Positions 12,220 to 62,711 are shown, counted from the first letter of the stretch. The stretch is DNA of 64,000 nt from Rhodothermales bacterium (GCA_034439735.1 JAWXAX010000076.1:536-64535), one strand, 5' to 3'. Made by a program: numbers and translations. Notes: a model not told the origin generated them from the letters alone.

Positions 12220-12340
12220 GCAAGCTCGCGTGAAAAGGAATAAAGGCGCACGACGGCGCCTACAACATGCCCGGAGGAGCGCGGTGTTTCCTCACCGCCC
12301 CGGCTCAAGAGAATTTCGCCAGGAACGTTCCAAAACAACG

Positions 12341-12756: not shown

Positions 12757-12807
12757 GCAAGACTTTCCCGCCTTCTGGCACTTTCTACCACCTCGCCTCG
12801 CCGAACC

Positions 12808-45010: not shown

Positions 45011-45925
45011 ATGGACCACATGACGACCGAGCATATACTGAGCTACGGCTACCTTACCGAGGACGAACGTCGCAGCGTCGAGGCCTATGTGGCACGGCAT
45101 CCGGAGCTTGCGCCGGTGCTAGCTGAGGCTCGGACCCTTTTTGATTCGATACACGCCGAGTACGAAGAAAATGCCGGGGGATTAACGGACGAAGAGCTGC
45201 TCGCCCACCTCGTTGACACTCAGCTGGGGCATCCGGGCCTGAACGACACGCGGATACGCCGCGCGCTCGACAGTTCTTCGGCGCTCCGTTCGCGGTACGA
45301 CGCCCTGGCGGGCCGGCTGGATCGGTTATCTTCGGCCATGGACCCCGTCGCGCATTTTGAACAGCTCTCGGGGTATCGCCTGAAGGAGGAAGCCCCCCTC
45401 CGAATGGATCGCCCGGCACAAGCCGGCACGCGCCCTTTCGCATGGCGCCGCCTGACACTCGCGGTCGGCTGCATGGCCCTCGCGCTGCTGGCGGTCGCCA
45501 TCCCCTCCGCGCGGCTTCGCGCTATCGATCGACTGGCCTATATCGAACCCGAGGAACTCGACCTGCCCGGATTTGATGCTATTCAACGCGGCGCGGCGGC
45601 GCCGACTGAACCGGCGTCTCCCGATGTCTTGTATCGCCACGCGCTCTCCTCGTTCAAACACGCCCGCAAGGCCGGCCTCGGCCTGTTTCCGCGGTATGAG
45701 GCGGCGTTATTAGACCGGGCGGAAAAGGAGCTCGAACGGGTGATCGCCGTCGAGCCCGCGACCTCATTCTTGTCTCATGAGGCTCGTTATACGCTGGCGC
45801 GGGTGTATCTGGCCGGAGACCATCGTGATGCCGCACGGGATGAACTGGCCGAGGTGGCGGCCGGTGAGAGTCACCGCGCGGCCGCCGCACGTGAGTTGCT
45901 TACACGCATCGCAGCCCGACGGTGA
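45011..45925 (+). CDS. putative single-pass anti-sigma factor (hypothetical)
   Basis: 304 aa. Cytoplasmic N-domain, one TM (LTLAVGCMALALLAVAI), helical TPR-like C-terminus. 21 nt after the sigma-like gene. Confidence 0.45.
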   Translation: MDHMTTEHILSYGYLTEDERRSVEAYVARHPELAPVLAEARTLFDSIHAEYEENAGGLTDEELLAHLVDTQLGHPGLNDTRIRRALDSSSALRSRYDALAGRLDRLSSAMDPVAHFEQLSGYRLKEEAPLRMDRPAQAGTRPFAWRRLTLAVGCMALALLAVAIPSARLRAIDRLAYIEPEELDLPGFDAIQRGAAAPTEPASPDVLYRHALSSFKHARKAGLGLFPRYEAALLDRAEKELERVIAVEPATSFLSHEARYTLARVYLAGDHRDAARDELAEVAAGESHRAAAARELLTRIAARR

Positions 45926-45984
45926 CACGCTCGCACGGGTGTTCGACACGGCAGGCCAATCCTCCACCAACACTATCCAAATCG

Positions 45985-47391
45985 ATGCGAACGGCTCTCT
46001 GGTCCCTGCTTCTTTGTTCGCTTGCTCTGCCCGTGGCCGGGCAAACGGCGTCCTTTATCCTGGGCGCGGATGTGAGTTTTTTGGAGGAGGTGGAAGCCGG
46101 CGACGGCGTGTTTACCGTAGACGCCCTGCCGGCGGATCCGCTGGACATCCTCGCTTCGAACGGATTTGGCGCCATTCGCCTCCGCGTCTGGCACACACCG
46201 CCGGATGGCCGCAATACGCTTGAAGAGACGCTGGCGACGGCCGCCCGTGCCCGCGAGGCAGGCCTGGATCTCTTACTCGATCTTCATTATTCGGACACAT
46301 GGGCCGACCCCGGCAAACAGTTCGTCCCCACCGCCTGGGCCGGGCAGTCCTTCGATGCGCTCCGCGACAGCGTACGAGCCTACACATTCTCCGTCGTTGA
46401 CGCCCTCGCCAGACAGAATACCCTGCCGGACATCGTCCAGCTGGGCAACGAAATCATTTGCGGGATGCTCTGGGATGCCGGACGCGTGTGTAATGCGTTT
46501 AATACAGGCACCCAGTGGGAGCAACTCGCCAGCCTGTTATCCGCCGCTCGGGAGGGCGCGTTGGAGGCCGTGCCGGCTGGAGATTCGTTGCGCATCATGA
46601 TCCACATAGACCGAGGGGCGGACAACGCTGGCAGCCGCTGGTTCTTCGATCAGCTGATGGCGGAGGACATCGCGTTTGACCTCATCGGTCTGTCCTATTA
46701 CCCCTGGTGGCATGGATCGCTCGATGATCTCTCTCGCAACCTGACCGACCTCGCCGGCCGCTACGGCAAGGATATCGTCGTCGTCGAGACGGGGTACCCG
46801 TGGACCCTGGCATGGAACGATACCGTCAACAACCTGGTGGGCGACCCGACTCAGTTGTTGCCCGGCTACCCCGCCACCGTCGCCGGTCAGGAGGCTTTTT
46901 TTCGCGAACTGCACCGTCGGGTGAAGGCGACGCCGGCCAACCGCGGGATAGGGGTATTCCTGTGGGAGCCGCTTGCCATAAGTGGGCCCTCGTTTGGCTC
47001 GGTGATGGAAAACCTTGCATTATTCAACTTCGCCGGGGAAGTGCTTGCGTCGATGCGTGCATTCGCGCCGGAGTCGACCACCGGCGTAACTTCCGAGTCA
47101 GAACCGGTAGCCGGTGCAATTGACGTGTATCCCACGCCTTTCCATACGACGGTAGAGATTGTTTATGAGGGGAAGAATGCACGAGGGACCCTCCAGCCGA
47201 TGCATGCGCACATCCTGGATAGCCTGGGGCGAAGCGTGGTTTCGTTGGGCCCGGGTCGATCGTCCGGGGACGGGGTGAGGTGGCAGTGGGATGGGCAGGA
47301 TGGCGCGGGACGTCGTATGCCGGCCGGTCTGTACTTCTGTGCGATCGAAGCACCCGAAGGAAGCGTGTTTGCGCGTATCGTTCGGCAATGA
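45985..47391 (+). CDS. arabinogalactan endo-beta-1,4-galactanase (GH53) with T9SS C-terminal sorting domain
   Basis: ATG at 45985 gives signal MRTALWSLLLCSLALPVAG. GADVSFLEEVE..., IRLRVWHTP, QLGNEI. C-terminal VYPTPFHTTVEI...GLYFCAIEAPEGSVFARIV resembles the Por secretion tail. Confidence 0.8.
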   Translation: MRTALWSLLLCSLALPVAGQTASFILGADVSFLEEVEAGDGVFTVDALPADPLDILASNGFGAIRLRVWHTPPDGRNTLEETLATAARAREAGLDLLLDLHYSDTWADPGKQFVPTAWAGQSFDALRDSVRAYTFSVVDALARQNTLPDIVQLGNEIICGMLWDAGRVCNAFNTGTQWEQLASLLSAAREGALEAVPAGDSLRIMIHIDRGADNAGSRWFFDQLMAEDIAFDLIGLSYYPWWHGSLDDLSRNLTDLAGRYGKDIVVVETGYPWTLAWNDTVNNLVGDPTQLLPGYPATVAGQEAFFRELHRRVKATPANRGIGVFLWEPLAISGPSFGSVMENLALFNFAGEVLASMRAFAPESTTGVTSESEPVAGAIDVYPTPFHTTVEIVYEGKNARGTLQPMHAHILDSLGRSVVSLGPGRSSGDGVRWQWDGQDGAGRRMPAGLYFCAIEAPEGSVFARIVRQ

Positions 47392-47406: not shown

Positions 47407-48534
47407 TCAGGCGTAGGTATTCAGCATCACCGGCATGATCAGCATGAGCAGATCTTCGCCTTCGCGTTGTTCGAGGGGGGTGACGATGCCGGCGCGATTG
47501 GGTGTACTCAACTCAAAAACGATGTCGTCCGCGGCGATGTGTCCGAGCACGTCGGTCAGGTAGATGGCATTAAAGCCGATCACCATCGGATCGCCACTAT
47601 ATTCGCATAAGACCGTTTCGCGCGCTTCGCTGGAGCGTTCGATGTCTTCGGCCGAGATCTCCAGGCGGTTCGCATCGAGTGAGAGCCGGATCTGGTTCGT
47701 CATGCTGGACGAATAGAGGCCGACGCGTTTGACGGCGGCGAGCATCGCATCGCGGTTGATGACGAGGCGGCGGTCGTTTTCTATCGGGATGACCGCCTCG
47801 TAGTTCGGGTAGTTTTCGTCGACGAGCCGAGTGAGCACTTGTCCGGTGCCCAGGTCGAACGCGGCATAACTGTCGTCCACGGCAATCGTGCAGGCTTCGT
47901 CGCCGACTACGCGGGCGGCGAGGGCCAGGGCTTTTTCGGGGACGATAAAGTTTTTAGGTTGCTCGCTGGTGACATCGTCCATCGTGAGGCGGACGAGGCG
48001 GTGGCCATCGGTGGACACCATGCGGCTGTTTTCCGGTTTGACCTGGAAGTAGATGCCCATCATGGCCGGCCGCAGGGCGTCCTTGCTGACGGCGAAGCTG
48101 GCGATCTGGATGGCGCGTCGAAGGACCGCGCCGGCGAGTTCGATGGTGTGTTTGTGGGAGATCTCCGGCAGGGCCGGGTAATCGGCGCCATCGAATCCGA
48201 CCATTTTATAGACGCCCTGATCCGTCTTTAATGTAATGTGGAATTCCTCGTCGGCGGTAAAGGAAATGGGCAGCGAGGGGAGGGCGCGGAGCGTATCGAG
48301 CAGGCGCTTGGCCGGCACGGCGATGCGGCTACGACCGGGAAACGCGGCGTCGAAATGCACCGGAAGCGACTGGACGATCGAGATCTCGAGGTCTGTTGCG
48401 GTCAGCTTCAGCCGACCTTCTTCCTGTGTAAACAGGATACATTCCAGCACGGGCAGCGTGCTCTTCGTCGGGACAGCGCCGCCCACGGTGGTGAGCGCTT
48501 TCAACAGGTCGGCACTCGATGCGGTGAACTTCAT
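47407..48534 (-). CDS. dnaN: DNA polymerase III subunit beta
   Basis: ATG at 48534 (MKFTASSADLLKALTTVGG...). Three-domain clamp length. Directly downstream of dnaA. Confidence 0.95.
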   Translation of the reverse strand: MKFTASSADLLKALTTVGGAVPTKSTLPVLECILFTQEEGRLKLTATDLEISIVQSLPVHFDAAFPGRSRIAVPAKRLLDTLRALPSLPISFTADEEFHITLKTDQGVYKMVGFDGADYPALPEISHKHTIELAGAVLRRAIQIASFAVSKDALRPAMMGIYFQVKPENSRMVSTDGHRLVRLTMDDVTSEQPKNFIVPEKALALAARVVGDEACTIAVDDSYAAFDLGTGQVLTRLVDENYPNYEAVIPIENDRRLVINRDAMLAAVKRVGLYSSSMTNQIRLSLDANRLEISAEDIERSSEARETVLCEYSGDPMVIGFNAIYLTDVLGHIAADDIVFELSTPNRAGIVTPLEQREGEDLLMLIMPVMLNTYA

Positions 48535-48715
48535 GATCCGGGTAGCTAATGAAGGGACGGAATTCGATGTCAAATCTACGCGCTGGAGAGGGGCTTGTCC
48601 ATCCCCGGGAATCGCGAACCGGGGGTAAGGCTATATAAATAGCGCCAGGGATATAGCGGTGTGCACGGCAACGATCCGGGATCGAGAAGGTTTCGAGCCG
48701 GGATCGTTGCGTGGG

Positions 48716-50266
48716 TTATCGGCTACGCACGTCGAGCCGTTGCCGGATTTCGTTCATAATGCCGGCGAACTTCGGGTTGGTATCGATCTGGTTCTCGACA
48801 CTCTGATTCGCATGAATCACCGTCGAATGATCTCGCCCACCGAAATACAGGCCGATGGTCTTGAGGGAGTGCTGGGTCAATTCCTTGCTGAAGTACATGG
48901 CGACCTGGCGGGCCTGGACGACTTCGCGTTTCCGAGTTTTGCCGCGCACGAGGTCTTCCGTGATCTCGAAGTACTCGCAGCAGATACGCTGGATTTCATC
49001 GATCGTCAGGTTGATGCGCGTGTCTTTGATGAGGTCTTTCAGCATCTCGCGCGCGAGGGGCAGGTCGATCTCACGGTTATGCAGGGTGGCATGCGCCAGG
49101 AGGCGGATGAGCGCCCCTTCCAGTTCGCGTATGTTGCTTTTAACATGGTGCGCGACGAACTCGACCACGTCGCGGGCGACCTGGATGCCGTCGTCTTCGG
49201 CGCGTCGTTGCAGGATGGCGATGCGTGTTTCGAACTCGGGCGGCTGGACGTCCGCCGTGAGGCCCCACTGGAAGCGGGAGAGCAAGCGCTCCTCAATGCC
49301 CGGGATATCGCGGGGTGGGCGATCGGCGGACAGGATGATCTGCTTGCCGGACTGGTGCAGGGTGTTGAATATGTGGAAGAACTCTTCCTGCGTTTTCTCT
49401 TTTCCGCCGAAGAACTGCACGTCGTCCACGATGAGCAGGTCGATCTGGCGGTAAAAAAGGGAGAACTCGCTCACCCGGTTGTTCTGGATGGCCTGGACGA
49501 ATTCGTTCGTAAACCGTTCGCTGGAGATGTAGAGGACCGAGCGGGCGTTGTGGTTCGCGAGGGCATAGTTTCCGATGGCCTGGATCAGATGCGTCTTTCC
49601 AAGCCCGACGCCTCCGTAGATCATGAACGGGTTGAAGCTCGTGGCGCCCGGCTGCTGGCCGATCGCGAGCGAGGCGCTGCGGGCCAGGCGGTTGCAGTCG
49701 CCTTCGATGAACCGCTCAAAGGTGTACGAGGGGTTGAGGTTACTCTCGACCGGCGCCGGCTTGATGCCCGGGATGATAAAGGGGTTGGAGAACGGGCCAG
49801 GTTTAGCGGGCGGGGGCGGGCTGAACCGCGGGCCTGCCGTTTGCCCGTTCGTGACGCCGGCCGTGTCAAACGACGGATGCGGAGCGGTGGGCGAGGACCG
49901 GCTGGGGGGGCGGTTCGGCGACACAGGCGCGGGTTCGGCGTCCGCCTGCCGCGCGGCTACCTGCATCGACGAGCCTTCGTGCCCCGTCTCGGCATCTTCC
50001 TTTTCGATCACGACATTGTAGATCAGGCGGCCCTGCGGCCCTACGACCTTGACTATCGTTCTGCGAAGGAGCGCATAGTAGTGCTCTTCGAGCCACTCAT
50101 AATAAAATCGGCTCGGAAGCTGGATAGTTAGCTTCCGTTGGCCATCTTCCTCCAGGAGGCTCAGTGCCTTGAGCGGCTCGAACCAGGTTTTGAAGCTCTG
50201 CCGGCTGACGTTGTCTCGTATGATATCGAGACACGTTTGCCAGACTTGATTGGCCGATAGTTCCAT
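48716..50266 (-). CDS. dnaA: chromosomal replication initiator protein DnaA
   Basis: 516 aa. Walker A GGVGLGKTHL, IDLLIVDDVQFF, C-terminal DNA-binding REVVQARQVAMYFSKELT...GGRDHSTV. Confidence 0.97.
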   Translation of the reverse strand: MELSANQVWQTCLDIIRDNVSRQSFKTWFEPLKALSLLEEDGQRKLTIQLPSRFYYEWLEEHYYALLRRTIVKVVGPQGRLIYNVVIEKEDAETGHEGSSMQVAARQADAEPAPVSPNRPPSRSSPTAPHPSFDTAGVTNGQTAGPRFSPPPPAKPGPFSNPFIIPGIKPAPVESNLNPSYTFERFIEGDCNRLARSASLAIGQQPGATSFNPFMIYGGVGLGKTHLIQAIGNYALANHNARSVLYISSERFTNEFVQAIQNNRVSEFSLFYRQIDLLIVDDVQFFGGKEKTQEEFFHIFNTLHQSGKQIILSADRPPRDIPGIEERLLSRFQWGLTADVQPPEFETRIAILQRRAEDDGIQVARDVVEFVAHHVKSNIRELEGALIRLLAHATLHNREIDLPLAREMLKDLIKDTRINLTIDEIQRICCEYFEITEDLVRGKTRKREVVQARQVAMYFSKELTQHSLKTIGLYFGGRDHSTVIHANQSVENQIDTNPKFAGIMNEIRQRLDVRSR

Positions 50267-50510
50267 ACGCGTGGACTGGCAGTATCAAAGCGTACCGGCG
50301 TATACACGAGCGAGCGCGTACGACCGGTTTCATGGGTGGATGATGCTTTTCCCGGATAGGCCAGATACCTCAAGACGGCGAAGCCGACACAAGGACAACA
50401 GATGGAATGCGTCCGCCGCAAGGACGTGCGGCATAGATATGCACTACTTATTCACACAGGCCCGGACACAACCCTGCGCCACGGTACGACTGGTTCGCCC
50501 AAATTCTGTA

Positions 50511-50533
50511 CTTGTTGACAAGTTATCAACAAG
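50511..50533. promoter_or_regulatory. 8-bp inverted repeat CTTGTTGA-N7-TCAACAAG upstream of dnaA (contains TTGACA and the DnaA-box-like TTATCAACA)
   Basis: Read directly. TTATCAACA lies at 50523-50531. About 245 nt upstream of the dnaA start. Confidence 0.5.
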
Positions 50534-50903
50534 GGCACATGCGCCACCAGGCGCAAAAATCACAGATACATTCGCCGGGTGTGTCATTTAGTATACACAC
50601 GCAGGCACGAAGCTACCCTCCGCCCATAATGGTGATGGCGTTGGCGCGCCCTCATTCATCCGGGTGTACACATGTTGTGCACAGAGCGGCCTAACGTCGT
50701 AGGGCATCGGGTCAAAACCGGGCGTGCTGCAGTGTGTCGCCGGTTAGGGTACCCGATGCAGGCGTGCACAGGTTCGCGCTTGACCGTCGATACATGCTGC
50801 GGATGTATGCTCGGTATCGCCTGCGCGGGGCCTGTGAGTGGCGTCGTGAGGCAGGGCCTCGGTATAGTGCCGTAACTAAAAGCGTGGTTAGTAACGGAGC
50901 TGG

Positions 50904-50940
50904 AATCGTGTGACAAAATCGTGTGACAGAATCGTGTGCG
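50904..50940. repeat. 3 x 13-bp direct repeat (AATCGTGTGACAa / AATCGTGTGACAg / AATCGTGTGCG)
   Basis: Read directly in the gene-free dnaA-yceD spacer. Confidence 0.85.
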
Positions 50941-51180
50941 TAGGCACGTCGATGCATTCCCCTACCTGGGATTTTATGGTAACCATAATGGCCGGTAACG
51001 TCAAGCAAGTGGTCCTGGTTTTTTGGCTTCAAGCGGTAACGAAGTTGCAAACCGCTAGATGGCATTTTTAGAAAGTTCACGGGCTTTTTGGGCGAAATAT
51101 GGAAACCTTCTGTAGGGGTAGGGATTAAAGCCAAGCTGTATCAGTGCCACAGCGTCCCGTGTGTTTGTACGGCGTCAACC

Positions 51181-51222
51181 GTGCCGGTGACAGGGTGCCG
51201 GTGACAGCGTGCCGGTGACAGG
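51181..51222. repeat. 3 x 14-bp perfect tandem repeat (GTGCCGGTGACAG[G/C])
   Basis: 51181-51194, 51195-51208, 51209-51222. Followed by TACAAT at 51225-51230 and the yceD ATG at 51278. Confidence 0.9.
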
Positions 51223-51277
51223 GGTACAATACAGGTAGTGCCTCTTGTAACCCGACGTACTGAAAGGGGTCAGCGTC

Positions 51278-51775
51278 ATGGTTCGAATTGATCTCAAGCC
51301 GTTAAAAAGCGGCCCGCACGAGTTCGACAGGGAGCCTGAGCCGGAATCGCTCGGGCTGGATCCTGCCGTCTTTAGCGACATTCGGCTCCATGTGCGCCTT
51401 GATGTGCAGCCCGAGAACGTGTTTGTGCGTCTGACGGCCAGCGGGGTGGCGACACTGATCTGCGACCGGACCCTCGTTCCCTATGACGAACCGGTGGCGG
51501 GTGATTTTGCGATGCTCTATGTTTTGGGCAGCGGGACCGAGCCGCGGGATGAATCGTTGGACGACGTGATCGAACTCGCTCCTGAAGAGGAGGAGATCGA
51601 CCTTACGGAAGCCGTCCGGGATACGTTGCTGCTGGCGTTGCCGCATCGCCGTGTGGCGCCAGGTGCGGATGCGTTGGAGTTACCGCTGCAATATGGCGCG
51701 CCGGCCGATGATGAGGTGGTGGATCCCCGCTGGGATGCGCTCCGTAATCTTCGGACCGATGACGGCGCCTTGTGA
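51278..51775 (+). CDS. yceD: YceD/DUF177 family protein (large-subunit rRNA accumulation protein)
   Basis: 165 aa. Acidic, with ATLICDRTLVPYDE-like core. Canonical position upstream of rpmF-plsX. Confidence 0.8.
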   Translation: MVRIDLKPLKSGPHEFDREPEPESLGLDPAVFSDIRLHVRLDVQPENVFVRLTASGVATLICDRTLVPYDEPVAGDFAMLYVLGSGTEPRDESLDDVIELAPEEEEIDLTEAVRDTLLLALPHRRVAPGADALELPLQYGAPADDEVVDPRWDALRNLRTDDGAL

Positions 51776-51852
51776 AGCGGTTCGCCGGATCGATCTGGCG
51801 GCCGTCGTACTATGTTTACCCTGTTGATCCCGGTAAATGAGGAATACCTACC

Positions 51853-52044
51853 ATGGCCAATCCAAAACGAAAACACTCGAAAGCCCGCTCGCGTTCGCGC
51901 CGCGCGGTCTATTACAACAGTCTTGTGAAGCCACAGATGGCCGAATGCACCAACTGCGGCAATACCAAGGTACGCCATCGTGCGTGCCCGAGCTGTGGTT
52001 ACTACCGCGGCCGCAAGATCGTCGAAGGCGTCGAAGCGGCGTGA
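51853..52044 (+). CDS. rpmF: 50S ribosomal protein L32
   Basis: MANPKRKHSKARSRSRRA..., CxxC...CxxC zinc ribbon (CTNCGN...CPSCGYY). Confidence 0.95.
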   Translation: MANPKRKHSKARSRSRRAVYYNSLVKPQMAECTNCGNTKVRHRACPSCGYYRGRKIVEGVEAA

Positions 52045-52173
52045 CCTCCCGTCCCTGGAGTCCTGGTCTTTTTGCGCTTTTTGCAGCGAACCAGTATTCT
52101 TAAGGCCTTCCCGTCACGGCGTGCAGGCATGAATCGGTGCCCTGTGCGGTTTAGCTAGATAATCGGACATTAC

Positions 52174-53184
52174 ATGGCTATTCGAGTTGCAGTGGATGCG
52201 ATGGGGGGAGATCATGCCCCATCCGTGGTTGTTCGAGGGGTCGTGCAAGCATTGCAACGGGCCGAGGGCCAGTTGGAGATTCTGCTGGTTGGCCCGGAAG
52301 CCATCGTAGCCGAGGAGATGCAACGCTGCGGAAATTGTGAGGGGCTGCCGATCAGGATCGTAGACGCACCGGAGGTAATCGGGATGGGCGAGCAGCCGGC
52401 ATCGGCTGTGAAGAACAAGCCGAAGTCGTCGATCCATATCGGGCTCAAGGCCCAGAAAGAGGGGCTGGCGGATGCGTTCATCAGTGCCGGCAATACGGGG
52501 GCGGTCATGGCCGCATCCTTGTTTATCCTGGGGCGGCTTCCCAACGTGGCGCGCCCCACATTGCTCGGGTTTATCCCTACCACCAAAGGGAAACACACGA
52601 TTAGCGTCGACATGGGGACGAACGTCGACTGCAAGCCCGAGCACCTCGTCCAGTTCGCGCAGATGGGTTCCATCTTTGTCGAGCAGGTACTGCAACGCCC
52701 CCGCCCCACCGTCGCCCTGATGAACATCGGCGAGGAGCCGGGCAAAGGCAACGAGCAGGCCAAAGCCGCCTACGAGCTGCTCAAAGTGGATGGGTCGATC
52801 AATTTCATCGGCAACATCGAGGGGCGGGACCTGCTCAATTATGCGGCCGACGTCGTTGTATTCGATGGCTTTGTCGGCAACATCGTGCTGAAGTTTGGTG
52901 AGAGCTGCATGACGACCGTGTTATCCACCATGGTCGCTGAAGAGATGGAACGTCTTCAATTTTCGCCGGAGCAGCGCCAACTCGTCAAGACGCTACTGGG
53001 CAGTATCCAGAAGCGATTCAACTACGAGGAATACGGCGGCGCGCCCCTGTTGGGCATTGCCGGCAATGTGTTGATCGGACACGGCAGCTCTACCCCACGC
53101 GCCATCGAGCAGCTGATCGTGACCGCTTCTCGTATCGTCAATCAACATCTGTCCGATCGGCTCTCCGAGAACTTCAGCGACTGA
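52174..53184 (+). CDS. plsX: phosphate acyltransferase PlsX
   Basis: 336 aa. IAVDAMGGDHAP, SAGNTGA, GHGSS motifs. Confidence 0.95.
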   Translation: MAIRVAVDAMGGDHAPSVVVRGVVQALQRAEGQLEILLVGPEAIVAEEMQRCGNCEGLPIRIVDAPEVIGMGEQPASAVKNKPKSSIHIGLKAQKEGLADAFISAGNTGAVMAASLFILGRLPNVARPTLLGFIPTTKGKHTISVDMGTNVDCKPEHLVQFAQMGSIFVEQVLQRPRPTVALMNIGEEPGKGNEQAKAAYELLKVDGSINFIGNIEGRDLLNYAADVVVFDGFVGNIVLKFGESCMTTVLSTMVAEEMERLQFSPEQRQLVKTLLGSIQKRFNYEEYGGAPLLGIAGNVLIGHGSSTPRAIEQLIVTASRIVNQHLSDRLSENFSD

Positions 53185-53223
53185 CTCGATCTCTGTTATC
53201 CTATTTCGTTAGCCGTGTTGTCC

Positions 53224-54258
53224 ATGTTTAAGGCTGCTATTACCGCCGTCGGTCATTACCTCCCCTCGTATCGGTTGACCAACGCCGAACTGGAACGTAT
53301 GGTAGATACTACCGACGAGTGGATCGTGTCGCGGACGGGTATCCGTGAACGGCGCATCCTGAAGGAAGAAGGTAAGGCCACCGCGTTTATGGCTTCGGAG
53401 GCGGCGCGTGAGGCGCTGCGGAAACGCGGGATCACGGCCGACGAAGTCGAACTCATCATCGTCGCGACCGTCACTCCGGACATGGTGTTTCCGGCGACGG
53501 CCTGTCTCGTCCAGGCGCAAATCGGAGCATCGAAGGCCTGGGGTTTCGACCTTTCAGCGGCGTGCAGCGGATTTTTGTTCGCCCTGTCCGCCGGCGCATC
53601 CTTTATCACGTCCGGCAAGCATAAAAAGGTGCTGGTGATCGGCGCGGACAAAATGTCCAGCATCGTCGATTATACCGACCGCACCACCTGTGTCCTGTTC
53701 GGCGACGGCGCCGGCGCGGTACTGCTCGAAGCCGATACCGAGGGGTATGGCGTCCTGGACACGATCGAGTACATGGATGGCTCGAACTCGTCGGCCCTGT
53801 GTATGGTTGCCGGCGGTAGCCTCCACCCCGCCTCCCACCAGACCGTCGACGCCCGGCAACACTACGCCTACCAGGATGGCAAGACGGTGTTTAAATATGC
53901 CGTGACGGGGATGGCCGATGTAGCCGAAGAGATCATGAAACGTAATGAACTCACCGGCGACGAAGTCCGCTTCCTGGTCCCCCACCAGGCCAACCAGCGC
54001 ATCATCGACGCCACGGCGCGGCGTATGGGCGTGGACAATGAGAAGGTGATGCTCAACATCGAGCGGTACGGCAATACGACCGCCGCCACGATTCCACTGT
54101 GCCTGTACGACTGGGAGGCCGACCTCAAGAAGGGTGACAACATCATCCTGACCGCCTTTGGGGGCGGCTTCACCTGGGGCGCCGCGTACGTTCGATGGGC
54201 CTACGATGGGGCGACCGTTCGCGCCGAGGCCAGCGCCGCCGCGGGCGCCAACGCTTAA
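53224..54258 (+). CDS. fabH: 3-oxoacyl-ACP synthase III
   Basis: ATG at 53224 ([14 protein letters not shown]). Active-site [27 protein letters not shown]. Confidence 0.95.
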
Positions 54259-54270
54259 CTCGATCCGATC

Positions 54271-55020
54271 ATGTCGTTCGACTTCAAGGGCAAGAACATT
54301 CTCGTTACGGGCGGTACGCGCGGCATCGGCCGGGCGATGGCAGGAGCCTTCGCCGCCGCCGGCGCTCGGGTCGCGTTCACTTTTCGCTCTTCCGCCGAAC
54401 AGGCTGAATCCTTCCGCGCCGAGCTCGAACAAAACGGCGGGCAGGCCCTTGCCTTCCAGGTCGACGCCGCCTCCTTCGACGACGCCCAGAAAACGGTCGA
54501 TGCCGTCGTTTCGGCGTGGGGATCCATCGACGTGCTCGTCAACAACGCCGGCATCACACGCGACGGGTTGATGATCCGCATGAGCGAATCGGACTGGGAT
54601 GCCGTGATCGACACGAACCTGAAGAGCGTGTTTAATTACGCCAAAGCGGCCTACCGGCCCATGATGAAGCAGCGCTCCGGTAAGATCATCAACATTTCTT
54701 CGGTGGTCGGCGTTACAGGAAATGCCGGACAGGCCAACTACGCGGCCTCAAAAGCCGGCATCATCGGGTTCTCGAAAAGCCTGGCCAAGGAACTCGGCAA
54801 ACGCGGCGTCACGGTCAATGTGGTGGCCCCCGGCTATGTGGATACCGATATGACGGCCGAACTATCGGAAAAAGCACGCGAGGAGCTCACTAACCAGATC
54901 CCCCTGGGGCGCACCGCGCGCCCGGAAGAAATCGCAGACGCCGTTCTCTTTCTGGCTTCTCCTCAGGCCGACTATATTACCGGACAGGTCCTCCTCGTCG
55001 ATGGCGGGCTGGCGATGTGA
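54271..55020 (+). CDS. fabG: 3-oxoacyl-ACP reductase
   Basis: 249 aa. TGGTRGIGRA, NNAGI, YAASKAG SDR motifs. Confidence 0.9.
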   Translation: MSFDFKGKNILVTGGTRGIGRAMAGAFAAAGARVAFTFRSSAEQAESFRAELEQNGGQALAFQVDAASFDDAQKTVDAVVSAWGSIDVLVNNAGITRDGLMIRMSESDWDAVIDTNLKSVFNYAKAAYRPMMKQRSGKIINISSVVGVTGNAGQANYAASKAGIIGFSKSLAKELGKRGVTVNVVAPGYVDTDMTAELSEKAREELTNQIPLGRTARPEEIADAVLFLASPQADYITGQVLLVDGGLAM

Positions 55021-55200
55021 ACGGTCCTGCCCTATACTGTCCCCTGATTTTCTACTATCTTACCGAGTCTGGTCGGTGCGCGTTCGACGCCTACCGGGCT
55101 TCTCCATTCGCGTATTTCGAACGACCGCCCGTCTGAAACGACAGTAAGACGCTTGTATCGTGTACCCTCCGGCGACCTGAGGGGAATAGTTTGATGACAT

Positions 55201-56982
55201 ATGGTTTCTGAAGAATCGGATAAACCCGCGTTTACCCAGGTAATCGACCTGACGTCCAGGGCTCAGCAGAACGCCCGTGAGGAACGCACTGTCGCCACCC
55301 TGCAAGAACCCGACCCGGCACTGCCTCGTGCCACCATCGATACGCTGTCCGACACGATCCGACGCGCCGTGATCTCCGCCGGCTGGAACAGCCTGATGCC
55401 GGTGCAGGAGTTGTCGATACCGTACCTCGTCGCCGGCCGCGACATGATCGTCCAATCCCGAACAGGCAGCGGCAAGACGGGCGCCTTCCTCCTTCCGTTG
55501 TTCGAGCGCCTCGATTCCCGCTCGGCCACGACGCAGGCCCTACTCCTCTGCCCGACGCGCGAGCTCGCCCGCCAGATCCATGAGGAGTTCGAGGCCATGC
55601 AGCGCGCCTTCGTCGATGACGAATACCGGCTCGAATCGGCCCTGGTCTACGGCGGCGTCAAGTACAAATCCCAGAACACGTCGCTTAAAGGCGGCGCCCA
55701 GGTGGTCATTGGTACGCCCGGTCGTATCCTCGACCACCTCGAGCGCCGCACGTTTACGCTGGACGATCTCAAGGTGCTCGTGCTCGATGAGGCGGACGAA
55801 ATGCTTTCGATGGGGTTTTACCCCGCGATGAAGCAACTGCGTCGCTACCTGCCGGCCAGCCGTAATTCGTACATGTTCAGCGCGACGATGCCGCCCAAAG
55901 TGCGGTCGCTGGCCCAGGACTTTCTGCGCGACCCCGGCTTCCTCTCGTTGAGTTCTGGACAGATCGGCGTAGACAGCATCGAACATCGGTATTATGTGGC
56001 CAGCCCGATGGAAAAAGACCGCGTGTTGGTCCGCATCATCGAGATGGAAAACCCGGATTCGGCCATCATCTTCGCCAATACGAAACGCGACGTGGAGTAC
56101 CTCGCCAAGTTCTTGCGCAACTTCGGGTACGACGCAAGTGAGATTTCAGGGGATCTGGACCAGCGCGCTCGCGAGAAGGTGATGGATCGGATCCGAAAAG
56201 GCGATCTGCGTTATCTGGTCGCCACGGATGTGGCGGCGCGCGGCATCGATATCTCCGATCTGAGCCACGTCTTTATGTACGACGTGCCGCAGGACCCCGA
56301 GTACTATATCCATCGGTCGGGCCGGACCGCTCGCGCCGGCAAGACGGGCACCGCGATCGTCGTGACGACGGCGACGGAGAAAAACGGCCTGCTCCGCATC
56401 ACCAAAAAATATGGGGTGGATACGCAGCAGCACGAGGTGCCGAGCTCCGAGGACGTGGAGGTCCGCGTGGCCGAGCGCATGACGATTGTACTCGAAGAGC
56501 GGATGCGCGAGAAGACCGACTATGCGCGGGAGCACCTGGGTTATTTCGTCCCGCTGGTCGAGCGGCTTTCGGCGGAAAAGCCGACGCTGCTCAGCATCCT
56601 GGTGGACGACGTGTACCTGGCGCACTCGCTCGGCCGGCTCGCCGAGCCCGAAGAGATTCCTGAGGACGCGCGTGGATCCAACGAAGAACTCATGGAGGAT
56701 CGGCTCGAAGCACACCTCAAGGGTAAATCCAACCTGACCCGCGTCCGCGGCGAGCGGTTTGTCCCGCTTGTTCAGCAGTTGGTGGCGGAGGAGCCGGAAT
56801 TGCTGGCGATGCTGGTTGACGAGCTAGATTTGGAGCAGGGCGCGTTTGTCTACCGCGAGCCGCCGCCTCCCGAGCCGCGTCGCGACCGCGAAGAGGAGGA
56901 ACGCCTCGCCAGCCGGCGGCCGCCTCGGTCCGGCAGTGGACGCCCGGGGGGCCGTTCGGGTGGCGGTGGGCGTCGACGGTGA
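55201..56982 (+). CDS. DEAD-box ATP-dependent RNA helicase with long C-terminal extension and Arg/Gly-rich tail
   Basis: 593 aa. SRTGSGKTGAF, PTRELARQI, VLDEADEML, SAT, HRSGRTARAG. Tail ...RPGGRSGGGGRRR. Confidence 0.9.
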   Translation: MVSEESDKPAFTQVIDLTSRAQQNAREERTVATLQEPDPALPRATIDTLSDTIRRAVISAGWNSLMPVQELSIPYLVAGRDMIVQSRTGSGKTGAFLLPLFERLDSRSATTQALLLCPTRELARQIHEEFEAMQRAFVDDEYRLESALVYGGVKYKSQNTSLKGGAQVVIGTPGRILDHLERRTFTLDDLKVLVLDEADEMLSMGFYPAMKQLRRYLPASRNSYMFSATMPPKVRSLAQDFLRDPGFLSLSSGQIGVDSIEHRYYVASPMEKDRVLVRIIEMENPDSAIIFANTKRDVEYLAKFLRNFGYDASEISGDLDQRAREKVMDRIRKGDLRYLVATDVAARGIDISDLSHVFMYDVPQDPEYYIHRSGRTARAGKTGTAIVVTTATEKNGLLRITKKYGVDTQQHEVPSSEDVEVRVAERMTIVLEERMREKTDYAREHLGYFVPLVERLSAEKPTLLSILVDDVYLAHSLGRLAEPEEIPEDARGSNEELMEDRLEAHLKGKSNLTRVRGERFVPLVQQLVAEEPELLAMLVDELDLEQGAFVYREPPPPEPRRDREEEERLASRRPPRSGSGRPGGRSGGGGRRR

Positions 56983-56987
56983 TACGT

Positions 56988-57060
56988 GAAGGGTTAAGGT
57001 TCTTGGTTCGAGGTTTAAAGGGATCTCCGTTGAGCGTTATACCTCAAAACCTTAACCCTC
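56988..57060. terminator. inverted repeat between convergent helicase and sulfatase genes
   Basis: GGGTTAAGGTT (56991-57001) / AACCTTAACCC (57048-57058), with inner GAGGT/ACCTC pair. The right arm abuts the sulfatase stop codon. Confidence 0.35.
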
Positions 57061-58552
57061 ATTCTGCCCACGCCGGCGTGCCGAACCAGTCGTGCATCTC
57101 CTGCTCGAAGGGGGCGATGATGCTGTCCGGCTCCGGCCATTCGCCGCGGTCCCCGGTCTCTGCGATCCAGGTGTCGAGCGCGCCGCGCAGCCGGGATAAC
57201 GCGGCCTGGTGTTCGGGGTGGGTGGACGTCGCGAGGTTACCGATCTCATGCGGGTCCGCCTCGGTGTCGAACAGCTGCTCGTAGGGAAGGGGTTTCATGA
57301 GATCGAGCGCGGGGCCGGTGAGCGTGCCGGCAGCGAGCATCTCCCGCATGATGGGCTGGATGATGAAGCACTTCTCCTTGTAGCGGTTCAGCGACGCGAA
57401 GCCCATCTCGGGCATGTAGTTGCGGATGTAGTGGTAGCGGGACTCGCGGACCGAGCGCATGCGGTTGAGCGTTTCGTCGACCCGGTCGCGGGCGCTGAAG
57501 GCATAGGTGCGGGGAGGGTCCGGCCGATCGCCCAGGAACACCCGGCTCTGCATGTTCATCGGTCGCTCGATGCCGGCCATCCAGAGCGTCGTCGCCGTGA
57601 GGTCCAGCACGCTGATCACATCGTCGATGACGCCGCCAGGGGTGTATTGGGGCGGAGGAGCAAGCGCCGGCGGATAATAGACGATCATCGGGACGTGGAT
57701 GCCGGTATCGTACAGCCAGTGGATGCCGCGGGGCTCCATCCGGCCGTTGTCGCCAAAAAATACAATGATGGTGTTATCGGCCAGCCCTTCCTGGCGGAGC
57801 CGGTCCAGGATCCACCCGATCCGCACGTCCATCCCCGATACCGAGTTCAGATACCGCGCCCATTCCTCCCGGACAACCGGGTGATCCGGGTAATACGGTG
57901 GCGGCGTGACGTTCTCCGGTGTGGCTATGCGGGGGTGTTGATCTTCCCCATACCATTTCACCCGCTCGTGCTTGTAGGATTGCCGGTCGTAGATATCGTA
58001 TTCGCTCTCCGGCATGTTGATCTGCGCGAAGAAGGGCTCGTTGGCCTTGAGGTCGTTCCATTCGTTCGACTGGTAGATCGGCCCCTCGTTCACGAAGTTG
58101 AGGTCCAGCTTGGCTGTTCCCACCTCCAGCGAATCGATATACTTGATGTTGGCCGTGAAGTAGCCGGCGTCCTGGAGGCGGTGGGTGAGTGGGCGGACAC
58201 CCTCGGGCAGACGATAGTCGTCCGTTCGATGCGACCGCATGTTGTGCGTGTCGGTGGTTGTCTGATACATCCCCGTCATAAACGCCGAGCGGCTCGGGGC
58301 GCACACAGGCGAGGTCGAGAAAACCCGTGTGTAGCGGATTCCGAGGCGGGCGAGGGAGTCCAGGTGGGGCGTGTGAACCTGTCGAGCGCCGTAGATGCCC
58401 AGGTCCAACTTCATGTTCTCGCCGACGAGCCACAGGATATTAGGCCGGACTGAGGCGGATTGCGATTCCACATCCGCCTCTGACTCGGGCGCGGGGGATT
58501 CGCAGCCGAGGAGCGCGAGCAGCAGCCCGTAGCAGGCGAGGCGTGACGTCAT
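57059..58552 (-). CDS. sulfatase (formylglycine-dependent), lipoprotein
   Basis: 497 aa. LLALLGC lipobox, SPVCAPSRSAFMTG (C-x-P-x-R) motif, DNGRMEPRG. Confidence 0.9.
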   Translation of the reverse strand: MTSRLACYGLLLALLGCESPAPESEADVESQSASVRPNILWLVGENMKLDLGIYGARQVHTPHLDSLARLGIRYTRVFSTSPVCAPSRSAFMTGMYQTTTDTHNMRSHRTDDYRLPEGVRPLTHRLQDAGYFTANIKYIDSLEVGTAKLDLNFVNEGPIYQSNEWNDLKANEPFFAQINMPESEYDIYDRQSYKHERVKWYGEDQHPRIATPENVTPPPYYPDHPVVREEWARYLNSVSGMDVRIGWILDRLRQEGLADNTIIVFFGDNGRMEPRGIHWLYDTGIHVPMIVYYPPALAPPPQYTPGGVIDDVISVLDLTATTLWMAGIERPMNMQSRVFLGDRPDPPRTYAFSARDRVDETLNRMRSVRESRYHYIRNYMPEMGFASLNRYKEKCFIIQPIMREMLAAGTLTGPALDLMKPLPYEQLFDTEADPHEIGNLATSTHPEHQAALSRLRGALDTWIAETGDRGEWPEPDSIIAPFEQEMHDWFGTPAWAE

Positions 58553-58570
58553 GGGGGGGTTTCCTGGGGG

Positions 58571-59962
58571 TTAACGAAGGACGGCGGCAACCATGTCGTC
58601 GATGCGGGTGAACTTTACACGCGGCCGGCCCAGTGCTTCGCCGGCCGCCGTCTCCAGAGCGTCGAGCTTGAGCCAGTCGGCGTACGTGAAAACCTCCGAC
58701 TGCCGGCTTCGGACAAAGGCCTCAGCCTCCGCGGCTGTGGAGTGGGCGGGATGAAGATGTTCGCCGCGCGCGGCATCCTCCATCATCCGATCCACGGTAT
58801 CGACGGCGCAGGCTTTGTTGGTGCCGATGACGCCGCTGGGGCCGCGTTTTATCCATCCAGCCACGTATTCGCCCGTCACGGGCTGGCCGGAAGTTGGATC
58901 GACGACGCGACTGTTGGTATTGTTGATGAGGCCGGCGCGTGCGTTGAACGGGATCCCCGGTAGGGGGACGCCAAGGTAACCGACGGAGCGGAAGATGAGC
59001 CCGACGGGCATTTCTTCAATGACGCCGGTGCCCACCGGGCGGACACCTCCGCGGCCGTCGTCTGACAGCGAGTTTTTCTCCAACCGGAGGGCGCGTACGG
59101 TTCCGTGTTCATCGCCTACGATTTCGGTGGGGGATACCAGAAAGCGGATGATGAGTTTTTTGGCTCGGGTGAGGGGGCGCTCGACGGCCATTTCCTGGAG
59201 GATTTCGATCTTCCGGTCGATGGCCCGGTCCGGATTTCGTTCCAGCATGGCCTGGCTGAGTGGGTCGAGGGCGACTTCTGCCGGGAGGGTGATTGCGTCG
59301 GCGTCTTCCATTTCGCCGAGTTCCTTGATTTCCGGGTTGGTGAACGCGGCCTGGGCGGGTCCGCGCCGGCCGAGCATGACCACTTCGCGGACCTTGCTGT
59401 GTCGAAGCGCTTCCAGGGCATAGTCGGCCATGTCCGTCCGGGCGAGTTCCTCCGGGGTGCGGCAGAGGATACGGGCGACATCGACGGCCACGTTGCCGAC
59501 GCCGACGACGGCGACGCGCTCCTGGGAGAGGTCGAACGACAGGTCCCGGAAGTCGGGATGGCCATTATACCAGGCGACGAACTCGGTCGCCGAGTGGCTG
59601 CCGGCGAGGGCTTCTCCCGGAATACCCAGGGTGCGATCGGTCTGGGCGCCCGTCGTGTAGCAGATCAGGTGGTAGAACTGGTGGAGGTCCTCGACGGACA
59701 GGTGTCGGCCGAGCTCTACGTTGCCAAAGAATCGGAAGCGGGGGTCTTGGGCCGTTTTGTCGTACTGGCGCACGACCGTTTTAATCTTCTGGTGGTCCGG
59801 AGCGACACCCCCGCGCACGAGTCCATAAGGGGTGGGGAGGCGATCGAAAAGGTCCACTTCAACGGAGGGATTCTTGAGGAGGTGGGCCGCGGCGTAAAAA
59901 CCGGAGGGGCCGGCGCCAACGATGGCTACGCGAAAGGGTTGGTCGGGTGATCCTGCTGCCAT
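58571..59962 (-). CDS. FprA / adrenodoxin-reductase-like NADPH:ferredoxin oxidoreductase
   Basis: 463 aa. VAIVGAGPSGFYAA and VAVVGVGNVAVDVA dinucleotide folds, GWIKRGPSGVIGTNK. Confidence 0.8.
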   Translation of the reverse strand: MAAGSPDQPFRVAIVGAGPSGFYAAAHLLKNPSVEVDLFDRLPTPYGLVRGGVAPDHQKIKTVVRQYDKTAQDPRFRFFGNVELGRHLSVEDLHQFYHLICYTTGAQTDRTLGIPGEALAGSHSATEFVAWYNGHPDFRDLSFDLSQERVAVVGVGNVAVDVARILCRTPEELARTDMADYALEALRHSKVREVVMLGRRGPAQAAFTNPEIKELGEMEDADAITLPAEVALDPLSQAMLERNPDRAIDRKIEILQEMAVERPLTRAKKLIIRFLVSPTEIVGDEHGTVRALRLEKNSLSDDGRGGVRPVGTGVIEEMPVGLIFRSVGYLGVPLPGIPFNARAGLINNTNSRVVDPTSGQPVTGEYVAGWIKRGPSGVIGTNKACAVDTVDRMMEDAARGEHLHPAHSTAAEAEAFVRSRQSEVFTYADWLKLDALETAAGEALGRPRVKFTRIDDMVAAVLR

Positions 59963-60032
59963 AGGAGTACGAACGAAGGCGGGGAACGAATAGGTCGCCG
60001 CAAGCTAACGGGCGACTGGCACTTTGTAAAGA

Positions 60033-60102
60033 GTGCAACGTGCAATGTGAAAAATGCAACGTGCAACGTGCAAAGGGCAACATGCAACGTGCAACATGCG
60101 CC
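60033..60102. repeat. ten tandem degenerate heptamers (consensus GTGCAAC)
   Basis: GTGCAAC GTGCAAT GTGAAAA ATGCAAC GTGCAAC GTGCAAA GGGCAAC ATGCAAC GTGCAAC ATGCGCC. A partial inverted copy GCATTGTTCACTTTGCAT lies at 60125-60142. Confidence 0.9.
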
Positions 60103-60159
60103 GTGAGCTATCCCTTTTCATTTTGCATTGTTCACTTTGCATTTATTCGTGGCTCCGCC

Positions 60160-61995
60160 TCATCCCGCCTGCGGATCGGCGCGTCTCGGGAGGGTGATAG
60201 TGAAGCGTGCGCCCTGGCCCGGGGAGGAGATACAGGAGATCGTACCTTCGTGGTCGTCCACGATTTTCTTGACAATAGCGAGGCCGAGGCCGGTGCCGCC
60301 TTTTTTTCCGGCGGTGGCGAAGGGGGTGAAGAGGCGGCCGAGGAGAGACTCGGGTATGCCTGGGCCGGTGTCGCCGAGATCGAGGTAGATGGCATCCGGG
60401 TCCGCGGAGGTGCGGATGCTGAAACGTCCGCCTTCCGGCATGGCGTCGGCGGCATTCCGCGCCAGGTTATGGATGACGCGCATCATCTTATGCTCGTCGA
60501 AATAGGCGATGCCGGTGTAATCCGCCTGGAGGGTGATTTCGATCCCTTTGCCGGCGAGTTCATGGCGTAGATGGGCGGTGACTTCGTCCAGGAAGCGGGC
60601 GAGGAAGACCTTTCGGATGAGGAGCTGGCTCTCGCCGCGCGCGAAGGCCAGCACCTCGCGGGTCATTCCGTTCATGAGGTCGAACTGCCGTTTGATCAAC
60701 TCCGTATACTCGCGACGCTTGTCGGCGTCCGCCAGTTCAGTCATCATCTCCGCATACCAGGAGACAATGGTCATCGGCGTCTTGAGGTCGTGCATGACGC
60801 CGGCCATCATCTGGCCGATGGTGGCGAGCCGGTTCTCGTTTTCGCGGTCCATCTTGGCGCGTGCGAGTTGGATCGCGCGGGACGCCTGGCCGGCGATGAG
60901 TTGCAGTAGGCGCAGATCCCCTTCGTCGAAGCCGGCGGACGAAAGGCCGTTGCCGCCGGCGTCCAATTTTTTATCGATCAACTCGAGCGCACCGACGGTA
61001 TCGTCGCCTAGGATGAGGGGGGCGCAGAGCAGGTTGCGCGGCCGGGCGCCGAGTTTTTCAGCGAAGGCGTGGGCGACACGGTCGTCAGTATCGGGATCGT
61101 TGACAAGCGCCGGCTCGCCGCGCGCCGCGACCCATCCGATGATACCCACACCCATGGGGATGCGCTGGCGGATGACGCGCGCCTCGTGTTCGCCGGCGGT
61201 GGTATGGAAGCGGAGGTCACCCTGTTTCCGGGAGCGGAGCGCCACGGAGCCGGCCTCGGCGCCGACGGCCGCGATGGCCTGCTGGAGGATGCGGTCGAGC
61301 AGCTCATCCAGGTCGTCCGCGGCGTGCATCTCTCGCTCGATGGCGTAGAGCACGTTGATCTCGCGGTTGCGCTGCTCGAGGTCCCATCGGGCCCGGGACA
61401 ACGCGACGTTTTTGTTTAGGAGCGACTCGTTTAGTTTCGTGTTTTCGATGGCAATGGCCGCCTGGCTGGCGAGGGCGCCCAGGAGCGATTCGTCGCCGGC
61501 GTCGAACGTGCCTTCCCGTTTATTCAGCACCTGGACGGCCCCGATCGTCTGGCCATCGTGATTGCGCATGGGCATACAGAGGATGGTGCGGGTGCGGTAG
61601 CCGGATTTGCGGTCGAACGACGGCTGGAAGCGGGAGTCGCTGTAGGCGTCCGGGATGTTGAGTGTCTCGCCAGAGGCGACCACCCAGCCGGCGATGCCCT
61701 CACCCGGTTTGAGCCGGATCTCGACGGATTCCTCCCCCTGCGCGAGGCGTGACCAAAGGGACTTCCGGTCGTCGGACATCAGGTAGAGCGTGGACCGGTC
61801 GGCCTCCATCAGCAGCGTGATATGCTCCATGATGAGCACGAGTAGGGCCTCAAGGTCGATACCGGACGAGAGGGCCCGGCCGACTTCCTGGACCAGCACC
61901 AGTTTTTTGCGTTCCGCAAGCAACTGCGCCTCGAGCGCCTTCGGATCCATGCCGTCAGAAGGAGTGGCGGACGGCTTGCCGGGTGGAGCTGGCAT
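60160..61995 (-). CDS. cytoplasmic sensor histidine kinase with tandem GAF domains
   Basis: 611 aa, no TM segment. H-box [13 protein letters not shown]-box [13 protein letters not shown]-boxes DTGPGIPE and GTGLGLAIV. Confidence 0.9.
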
Positions 61996-62091
61996 GCGGG
62001 TACCGGTGATACAAATGGATGAGATTCCGGGGCAGTCCCGGTCGAAAGCGGCGCACCAGGGGGGAGCGGGCGGGCGACGCTGTGCGGTTCG

Positions 62092-62616
62092 CTACTCAAG
62101 CGTCAGCTCAAAATCCGAATCTCCGGGGACAAAATACAGTGACCATTCTTTTTCGCTCGGGAAGTGCTTCACCCGAAACACATTCTTCTGGTCCGAGAAC
62201 ACCTCCATGAGCACATCGTGTTGGATATGGATCGCGGCGAACGCCTCCGGCGCCTCGTACGAGAGCGTGTACCACCACACGGGGATGCCGTTTTGCAATT
62301 CTTCCCCGCTGGACACAATGACGCCGGGCACGGGGATGCCGCCGGCCGACAGCACCAGCTTCTCATTCAGATATACGCCGAAGAGGGAGTCTACCTCGGG
62401 ATCGGCGCGCATCGTAAGGTCGGAGATGCCAAACCGATTCTGCAGGCCGGCTTCCAGGTCGTCCTTGAACAGCCGGATCTGCATCATGCCCATGGGTCCT
62501 TCCACCGCAAGCCGGGCGTAGGAGACGTGGAACTCGTGCGGCGCCACCAAGCGGCTGGCCATCAAGAGGCAGCCGGCGAGCAGGGTCAGTACGAGCGGGA
62601 CGATGCGGTGGAGCAT
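62092..62616 (-). CDS. hypothetical secreted protein (DUF6702-like, usually next to M1 peptidases)
   Basis: 174 aa. Signal-like MLHRIVPLVLTLLAGCLLMA, then HEFHVSYARLAVEG.... Family name from memory only. Confidence 0.5.
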   Translation of the reverse strand: MLHRIVPLVLTLLAGCLLMASRLVAPHEFHVSYARLAVEGPMGMMQIRLFKDDLEAGLQNRFGISDLTMRADPEVDSLFGVYLNEKLVLSAGGIPVPGVIVSSGEELQNGIPVWWYTLSYEAPEAFAAIHIQHDVLMEVFSDQKNVFRVKHFPSEKEWSLYFVPGDSDFELTLE

Positions 62617-62630
62617 GGGTTGGGTGTTTC

Positions 62631-62690
62631 GGGTTCAGAGTTCCGGGGTCCGAGCGGATCCAGCCAGGGCACACACGGAACTCCGAACCC
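62631..62690. repeat. 15-bp inverted repeat in the peptidase-DUF6702 spacer
   Basis: GGGTTCAGAGTTCCG (62631-62645) / CGGAACTCCGAACCC (62676-62690), one mismatch. Flanked by CGAACCC-type direct repeats up to 62706. Confidence 0.6.
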
Positions 62691-62711
62691 GGAACCCCGA
62701 ACCCGCTTCGC

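Follow-up and report, generated by a model that had tools for sequence, protein, structure and literature searches.

The spacer described here occupies positions 50267-51277 (exactly 1011 bp) of the window, that is, the whole 64-kb stretch of DNA, from an uncultured member of the Rhodothermales, that was analysed, and lies between the divergently oriented genes dnaA and yceD. On the minus strand, dnaA (48716-50266) encodes a protein of 516 aa with the Pfam domains Bac_DnaA, DnaA_N, and Bac_DnaA_C, and its downstream neighbour was dnaN (47407-48573). On the plus strand, yceD (51278-51775; DUF177 by Pfam) was the first gene of yceD-rpmF-plsX-fabH-fabG, after which came a DEAD-box helicase gene. 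The original prediction had placed a switch of strand polarity at this tract; however, plus-strand genes (45011-47391) lie directly left of dnaN, and the arrangement is only a local divergent pair. The lower GC content that had been predicted was confirmed, at 0.552 in the spacer versus 0.612 across the window.

No protein gene was found by a Pfam search on six ORFs of the spacer. The two ORFs that had been dismissed as junk-like, 50250-50591 (plus strand, 113 aa) and 50712-51134 (minus strand, 140 aa), both with a TTG start, were without a Pfam match, and a six-frame tblastn comparison of spacer peptides with 80 related loci matched only the N-termini of dnaA and yceD. The earlier description of 1011 bp without a credible ORF before dnaA therefore held, and neither a protein gene nor a known RNA family was found in the tract by Pfam, tblastn, and Rfam. 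On JGI and Logan contigs carrying the exact YceD sequence, the spacer DNA was identical to that of the window. A metagenome search with YceD returned only relatives at 28-30% identity. Close relatives (L092, L093, L095, and a partial L096) were reached by protein search and exact-sequence look-up, and were 87-95% identical to the window in DnaA and 70-82% identical in YceD.

DnaA boxes and predicted promoter elements upstream of dnaA

DnaA boxes were counted against the consensus TTATNCACA with at most one mismatch, and a wider set of sites was scored with up to two mismatches. Four boxes of the stricter set, all on the plus strand, fell within 235 bp of the spacer, against a window mean of 0.44 per kb, making this the second densest cluster in the 64-kb window, behind 12.3-12.8 kb. 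The wider set comprised seven DnaA-box-like sites, again all on the plus strand and confined to the dnaA-proximal 420 bp of the spacer, six of which formed three head-to-tail pairs with an 11-bp start-to-start spacing. The proximal pair (50437-50456), ATATGCACT-AC-TTATTCACA, was invariant in L092, L093, and L095. The middle pair (50512-50531) reads TTGTTGACA-AG-TTATCAACA, and was followed by a single box, GTATACACA, with one mismatch (50591-50599) and by the distal pair (50664-50683), GTGTACACA-TG-TTGTGCACA, which was conserved in close relatives. None of the seven sites was a perfect TTATCCACA, and four had two mismatches to the counting consensus. The two weak boxes originally seen, at 50448-50456 and 50523-50531, were both present as the second members of the proximal and middle pairs, and the box content was greater than had been recognized.

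The palindrome that had been reported in the tract was present at 50511-50533, with 11-nt arms that were 91% complementary, and coincided with the middle pair. As a site for a dimeric factor it was rejected, as the tandem box pair fitted better. The middle pair reads CTTGTyGACAAGTTwTCAACAA in L092, L093, and L095; its counterparts in other relatives were not palindromic, and its symmetry was therefore regarded as incidental.

The same layout recurred across the order. A search with DnaA retrieved 80 Rhodothermales and Balneolales loci, 51 of which (Rhodothermales) had divergent dnaA and yceD-rpmF-plsX separated by a spacer of 480-1100 bp, and in every dnaA-yceD case the GC content of the spacer was somewhat below that of its own locus. 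The commonest 9-mers shared among spacers were DnaA boxes, namely TTATCCACA (in 22 spacers), TTGTCCACA (18), TTATCAACA (13), and TTATTCACA (12). In 55 Rhodothermales spacers, we counted 172 boxes with at most one mismatch, versus 21±5 in shuffled sequences; one strand carried 158 of these and the other 14, and half of all boxes lay 168-365 nt upstream of the dnaA ATG. The dominant box-to-box spacing was 11 bp (91 cases), and tandem pairs were present in 47 of the 55 spacers. In many relatives, dnaA was preceded at 123-173 nt by a counterpart of the proximal pair, (A/C)TATGCACC-NN-TTATyMACA, and in 12 genomes the proximal and distal pairs were 214-238 bp apart. In the alignment with close relatives, the box pairs stood out as islands of identity, with diverged DNA between them. 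Several more distant relatives (e.g., L025 and L020) had an AT-rich stretch after the middle pair, which could be a promoter and also resembles a degenerate unwinding element.

A predicted σ70-like promoter directed toward dnaA lies on the minus strand at 51004-50976, with a -35 hexamer TTGACG (51004-50999), a 17-nt spacer, and a -10 hexamer TACCAT (50981-50976). It was the only σ70-like site on the dnaA strand in a scan with a consensus that may not be that of the host. The promoter type could not be read from tRNA upstream regions, as the tRNAs follow coding genes. Support for the element came from its recurrence; a promoter element of the same orientation was found 460-840 nt upstream of dnaA in approximately 30 spacers, including that of the cultured Rhodocaloribacter litoris. 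The order-wide variants of the -10 (TACCAT, TACTAT, TATAAT, TACAAT) and of the -35 (TTGACG, TTGATG, TTGACC) respected a TTGACA/TAnnnT consensus, the spacer was almost always 17 nt, and the position of an UP element was occupied by the A/T-rich motif TGTGAAATC or, in the window lineage, by A6 (T6 at 51019-51024). Promoter-like sites on the dnaA-directed strand numbered 34 in 56 spacers versus 11.7±3.0 in shuffles, an approximately threefold excess, while the opposite strand had 15 versus 12.6.

From the position of these hexamers, transcription would start near 50969, giving a putative dnaA leader of approximately 700 nt. In the window's spacer, all of the boxes are located downstream of the predicted promoter and ahead of the dnaA ATG (50266), an order also observed in relatives; if the promoter is used, every one would be within the leader. 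Such a length is unusual for a leader, and the analysis may have overlooked a promoter nearer to dnaA; a search of the DNA that separates the box pairs gave no convincing candidate for one.

The yceD-proximal block and the small repeats

The best-conserved block in the alignment of close relatives was 51005-51155, continuing left to approximately 50906. It holds the T6 run, an invariant GTAACGAAGTTGCAAAC (51036-51052), TTCACGGGCTTTTTGG (51076-51091), GGAAACCTT, and GGGATTAAAGCCAAGCTGTATC, while its leftward continuation also includes the dnaA-directed promoter and a 13-mer repeat. The stretch 51005-51155 probably serves both divergent promoters as control DNA from upstream. A version of TTCACGGGCTTTTTGG, the motif TTCACnnGCTTTT (also written TTCACACGCTTTTCGG), was found in 17 of 55 spacers, approximately 110-220 nt upstream of yceD and never on the minus strand. 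In more distant relatives, TTCACACGCTTTTCGG was followed by TTGCGT-18-TATCTT (ca. 75 nt upstream of yceD) and by TCTGTATCCGA, which together are a plausible yceD promoter. In the window lineage, the conserved block gave no convincing match to a yceD promoter of the Bacteroidetes type (-33/-7) or the σ70 type. The best plus-strand promoter match in the window's spacer was GTGACA-18-TACAAT (51201-51230), 47 nt before the yceD ATG, and it overlapped a plus-strand 14-mer repeat (51181-51223).

Both direct repeats that had been described as three copies of 13 and 14 bp were present. The 14-mer comprised 3.1 copies of GTGCCGGTGACAGG; it was absent, along with the overlapping promoter match, from all four close relatives, so both are considered young, and a role for the repeat as a conserved regulatory module was rejected owing to this lineage-specific occurrence. 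The 13-mer comprised 2.7 copies of AATCGTGTGACAA on the plus strand (50904-50938), was unique within the window, and would correspond to approximately +30 to +65 of the putative dnaA-directed transcript. It was kept as copies of CGTGTGACAGAATCG in L092, L093, and L095, but at genus or family level rather than order-wide, and is a candidate operator. Iterons are expected as conserved direct repeats of approximately 17-22 bp with a nearby Rep; the repeats found here were 13 and 14 bp long with about three copies each, and no rep gene was among the annotated neighbours of the spacer. The suggestion of an iteron-like regulatory module was therefore upheld in part, as the tract is a gene-free module acting at the DNA level, but one built of a DnaA-box array and divergent promoters instead of iterons.

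Replication origin and structured RNA as readings of the tract

The original prediction also had the tract competing for the role of oriC with a cluster near 12.5 kb. That cluster lies at 12220-12807, in the spacer that separates a usp gene from a cation-chloride cotransporter gene. Five boxes with no more than one mismatch occur there, two of which are perfect. The core of the cluster is TTGTCCAC-TTTTCCACA (12667-12683)-TTCC-CTA CTA CTA TCC CTA TTA CCC TTA; the CTA/TTA trios and an AT-rich element extend over approximately 12684-12735 (25-30% GC), flanked by TGTGGATAA at 12748-12756. Boxes were screened for at least three DnaA-trios (3'-GAT-5', read as CTA on the box strand) within approximately 16 nt. 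The box at 12675 was followed, after a 4-nt spacer, by six CTA/TTA triplets out of eight, and was the sole box in the 64 kb with at least four trios. At each of the three sizes scanned (40, 60, and 100 bp), the GC minimum of the window fell at 12666-12735, with GC contents of 0.25-0.37. The arrangement of box, box, CTACTACTA, and AT-rich DNA was kept in four relatives, including a complete genome; upstream of their usp orthologue, the core was TTGTCCACATTTCCACAG-nn-CCTACTACTAC, followed by AT-rich DNA. Its distance to dnaA was approximately 38 kb in L095 and 52 kb in L038, in both of which it was on the same contig as dnaA, and approximately 70 kb in the complete genome of R. litoris. Within the limited resolution of a 64-kb window, cumulative GC skew fell to a minimum at 19039 and rose thereafter. 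Owing to the trios, the AT-rich element, the conserved core, and the skew, the 12.5-kb locus is probably the true oriC, of the basal unwinding system (BUS) type, 38 kb from the dnaA tract.

An origin function for the tract itself was not supported, and we judge it very unlikely, whether the tract is taken as a second origin, as one half of a split origin (the dsDNA-binding one), or as what is left, still partly active, of an ancestral oriC linked to dnaA. The tract does adjoin dnaA, which is the commonest context of an origin; tandem 11-bp box pairs like its own stand at the head of the basal unwinding system (PMC8287927), the array was conserved order-wide, and some relatives had the AT-rich stretch behind the middle pair noted above. 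However, the DNA following the four stricter boxes of the spacer contained 0-1 trios in eight triplets, compared with six of eight at 12675, and the AT content of the 60 nt after these boxes was 0.33-0.47, compared with 0.65. No strong AT-rich unwinding element was found in the spacer, whose GC minimum was 0.35 over 40 bp, 0.40 over 60 bp, and 0.43 over 100 bp, compared with 0.25-0.37 at 12.7 kb. Skew was positive on either side of the spacer (+0.041 over 30000-50267 and +0.062 over 51277-64000) and did not change sign there, again at the resolution that 64 kb allows. Finally, five genomes retained a complete BUS origin at the usp spacer, 38-70 kb from dnaA, a separation far too great for the bipartite kind of origin known from B. 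subtilis or H. pylori.

The possibility that the tract hides a noncoding RNA fared no better. Here, the 250-bp block at approximately 50906-51155, or the long leader, would be a structured RNA or riboswitch-like leader for dnaA, or would sense L32 for yceD-rpmF. In its favour, the block was better conserved among close relatives than the YceD protein, the yceD-side motif was strand-specific, and a short inverted repeat at 50789-50808 (ATACAT-N7-ATGTAT) had both arms changed in L092 and L093 (ATACAC-N7-GTGTAT). That change was the sole two-sided one found, and no T-run followed the repeat on either strand as a terminator-like tail. A covariance-model search of the spacer with Rfam, at the gathering threshold and at E≤10, gave only a spurious match to a eukaryotic lncRNA (E=4.3). 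Folding z-scores against shuffled sequences were +1.5 (plus strand) and -1.0 (minus strand) for the conserved block, and -1.3 and +0.9 for the putative dnaA and yceD leaders, respectively; none was a folding signal. In the alignment with relatives, the RNAalifold covariation term was +1.24, where positive values are a penalty, and one pair among 34 was compensatory. The predicted stem AGCGGT/ACCGCT (51032-51056) and the three T-runs (51019-51024, 51065-51069, and 51085-51089) were present in the sequence; however, the stem was rejected as a hairpin, as its arms varied without compensation in L092, L093, L095, and L096 around an invariant loop. The conserved pieces were islands of primary sequence coinciding with promoter hexamers and DnaA boxes, and we consider a structured RNA highly improbable.

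Proposed control of dnaA and comparison with known systems

Our findings suggested that the tract is likely a control region common to the divergent dnaA-dnaN and yceD-rpmF-plsX-fabHG operons, not a replication origin, and that it is probably autoregulatory for dnaA. The σ70-type promoter predicted approximately 700 nt upstream would fire toward dnaA, placing the boxes within the transcribed leader. As free DnaA rises, the paired sites would be filled cooperatively, and filled pairs would lower dnaA-dnaN transcription by reducing read-through from the distal promoter, a form of negative autoregulation. Repression could proceed by a block to elongation or by bridging of the proximal and distal pairs, which the conserved distance of approximately 225 bp between them would permit. 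As a side effect, the array could soak up or buffer some DnaA close to the origin. The yceD-proximal 300 bp would carry the promoter of the ribosomal-protein and lipid-synthesis operon together with its upstream DNA, as well as the 14-bp repeat, probably young and a product of slippage. Repression of its own promoter by DnaA through boxes was reported in several phyla, with examples from E. coli, B. subtilis, Vibrio harveyi, Streptomyces lividans, and mycobacteria (PMC8203912). In Pseudomonas putida, by contrast, 12 boxes lie upstream of dnaA, yet overproduction of its own DnaA did not produce autorepression (PMC8203912); the presence of boxes therefore does not prove repression.

The side effect of buffering could instead be the main task of the array, which would then control the initiator pool by titration or conversion of DnaA near the origin, in the manner of datA, DARS, or the DnaA-binding clusters (DBCs) of Bacillus. 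The cluster is dense, oriented, conserved, and paired, and lies outside oriC yet within 38-70 kb of it, and the kept geometry of 214-238 bp between pairs suggests a defined nucleoprotein complex. Bacillus has species-specific DnaA-binding clusters near oriC, and in B. subtilis, stable DnaA binding at sites near oriC was set by local box density and affinity (PMC2533591). Against such a role, the array was always located directly between the dnaA-directed promoter and the dnaA ATG, a placement that autoregulation accounts for without extra assumptions, and no IHF-type site or other hallmark of datA or DARS was identified on non-systematic inspection. We regard pool control as the main function as unlikely, although the two roles are not mutually exclusive. 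Quite unlikely, in our estimation, is a dedicated DnaA-loading or sequestering station, possibly the fossil of an ancestral dnaA-linked origin, that tunes the remote origin; if true, it would represent a datA/DARS-like element of new architecture.

The origin assignment has practical consequences for annotation. The tract upstream of dnaA should not be annotated as oriC, and the origin question for the window is decided toward the 12.5-kb spacer upstream of usp. Automatic predictors that favour box clusters adjacent to dnaA could choose the wrong site, as the two are only 38 kb apart. This study also provides a comparative map of the Rhodothermales dnaA control region, comprising the box pairs, the distal promoter, and the yceD-side motifs. 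A literature search targeting Rhodothermales found nothing specific on origins or on the control of dnaA. For the host phylum as a whole, we know of no experimental replication data.

Several known systems share parts of this architecture. The basal unwinding system consists of a box pair, a short spacer, DnaA-trios, and AT-rich DNA (PMC8287927, PMC6669920); the tract has its head-to-tail box pair with a 2-bp gap, but its pairs are without trios or an AT-rich element, whereas the full module is located at 12667-12735. Box clusters outside oriC, such as the DBCs of B. subtilis (PMC2533591) and datA of E. coli (PMC5742627), likewise have dense boxes near the origin and could titrate DnaA, but the array described here is fixed between a putative promoter and dnaA, and no accessory-factor site was identified on the non-systematic inspection mentioned above. 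In the dnaA promoter regions known to be autoregulated (E. coli dnaAp1/p2, B. subtilis, S. lividans, and mycobacteria), boxes likewise occur immediately upstream of dnaA, within the promoter or adjacent to it (PMC8203912). As in E. coli, the origin is probably tens of kilobases from dnaA, so that the boxes would serve regulation and not unwinding. In E. coli, oriC and dnaA are roughly 40 kb apart. Compared with the known autoregulated regions, the Rhodothermales array is larger and more ordered, with three same-strand tandem pairs at 11-bp spacing, and it lies wholly downstream of a predicted promoter approximately 700 nt from the ATG. The element is thus of an expected, ordinary kind in a new lineage.

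Candidate replication origin and gene direction

The true oriC was probably located at window positions 12220-12807. Five DnaA boxes were found within this intergenic spacer, which carried the tandem boxes TTGTCCAC/TTTTCCACA, a TTCC spacer, and trios of the CTA/TTA type; the AT content of the window peaked inside it. The core of the spacer was kept upstream of usp, the adjoining gene, in four relatives, with a distance to dnaA of 38-70 kb. Were replication to begin at 12.7 kb, transcription of dnaA-dnaN (47407-50266, minus strand) would run head-on to the rightward fork, and the yceD-rpmF-plsX operon would be co-directional with that fork.

Inverted repeat in the dnaA-yceD spacer and ORFs in homologous spacers

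The spacer between dnaA and yceD contained an inverted repeat, ATACAT-N7-ATGTAT, at 50789-50808. Both arms were changed jointly to ATACAC-N7-GTGTAT in the loci of two close relatives (L092 and L093), and no terminator tail followed the repeat. The repeat may form a small hairpin or serve as a site for a dimeric factor.

ORFs were also noted in homologous spacers of two relatives. In L093, a minus-strand gene of 215 aa (2287-2934) was called inside the spacer, overlapping the conserved promoter block (about 50906-51155 in the window) and having no Pfam match; the call is probably spurious. That assembly also had yceD cut to 106 aa. In the locus of a more distant relative, a Rhodothermus sp. MAG, a small ORF at about spacer positions 501-686 encoded CxxC...CxxC motifs and a hydrophobic tail, and its product looks like a zinc-ribbon membrane peptide. 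This small ORF was absent from the window.

Repeats elsewhere in the window

Tandem repeats of 48 and 30 bp were present at 5767-5961; their coding-type, GAC/GAA-rich composition indicated a putative acidic repeat protein. The spacer separating two ORFs on the minus strand (58571..59962 and 60160..61995) contained, at 60033-60143, the heptamer (G/A)TGCAAC repeated in tandem about 9.6 times and then two TTTGCAT motifs, an array that looks like a set of binding sites.
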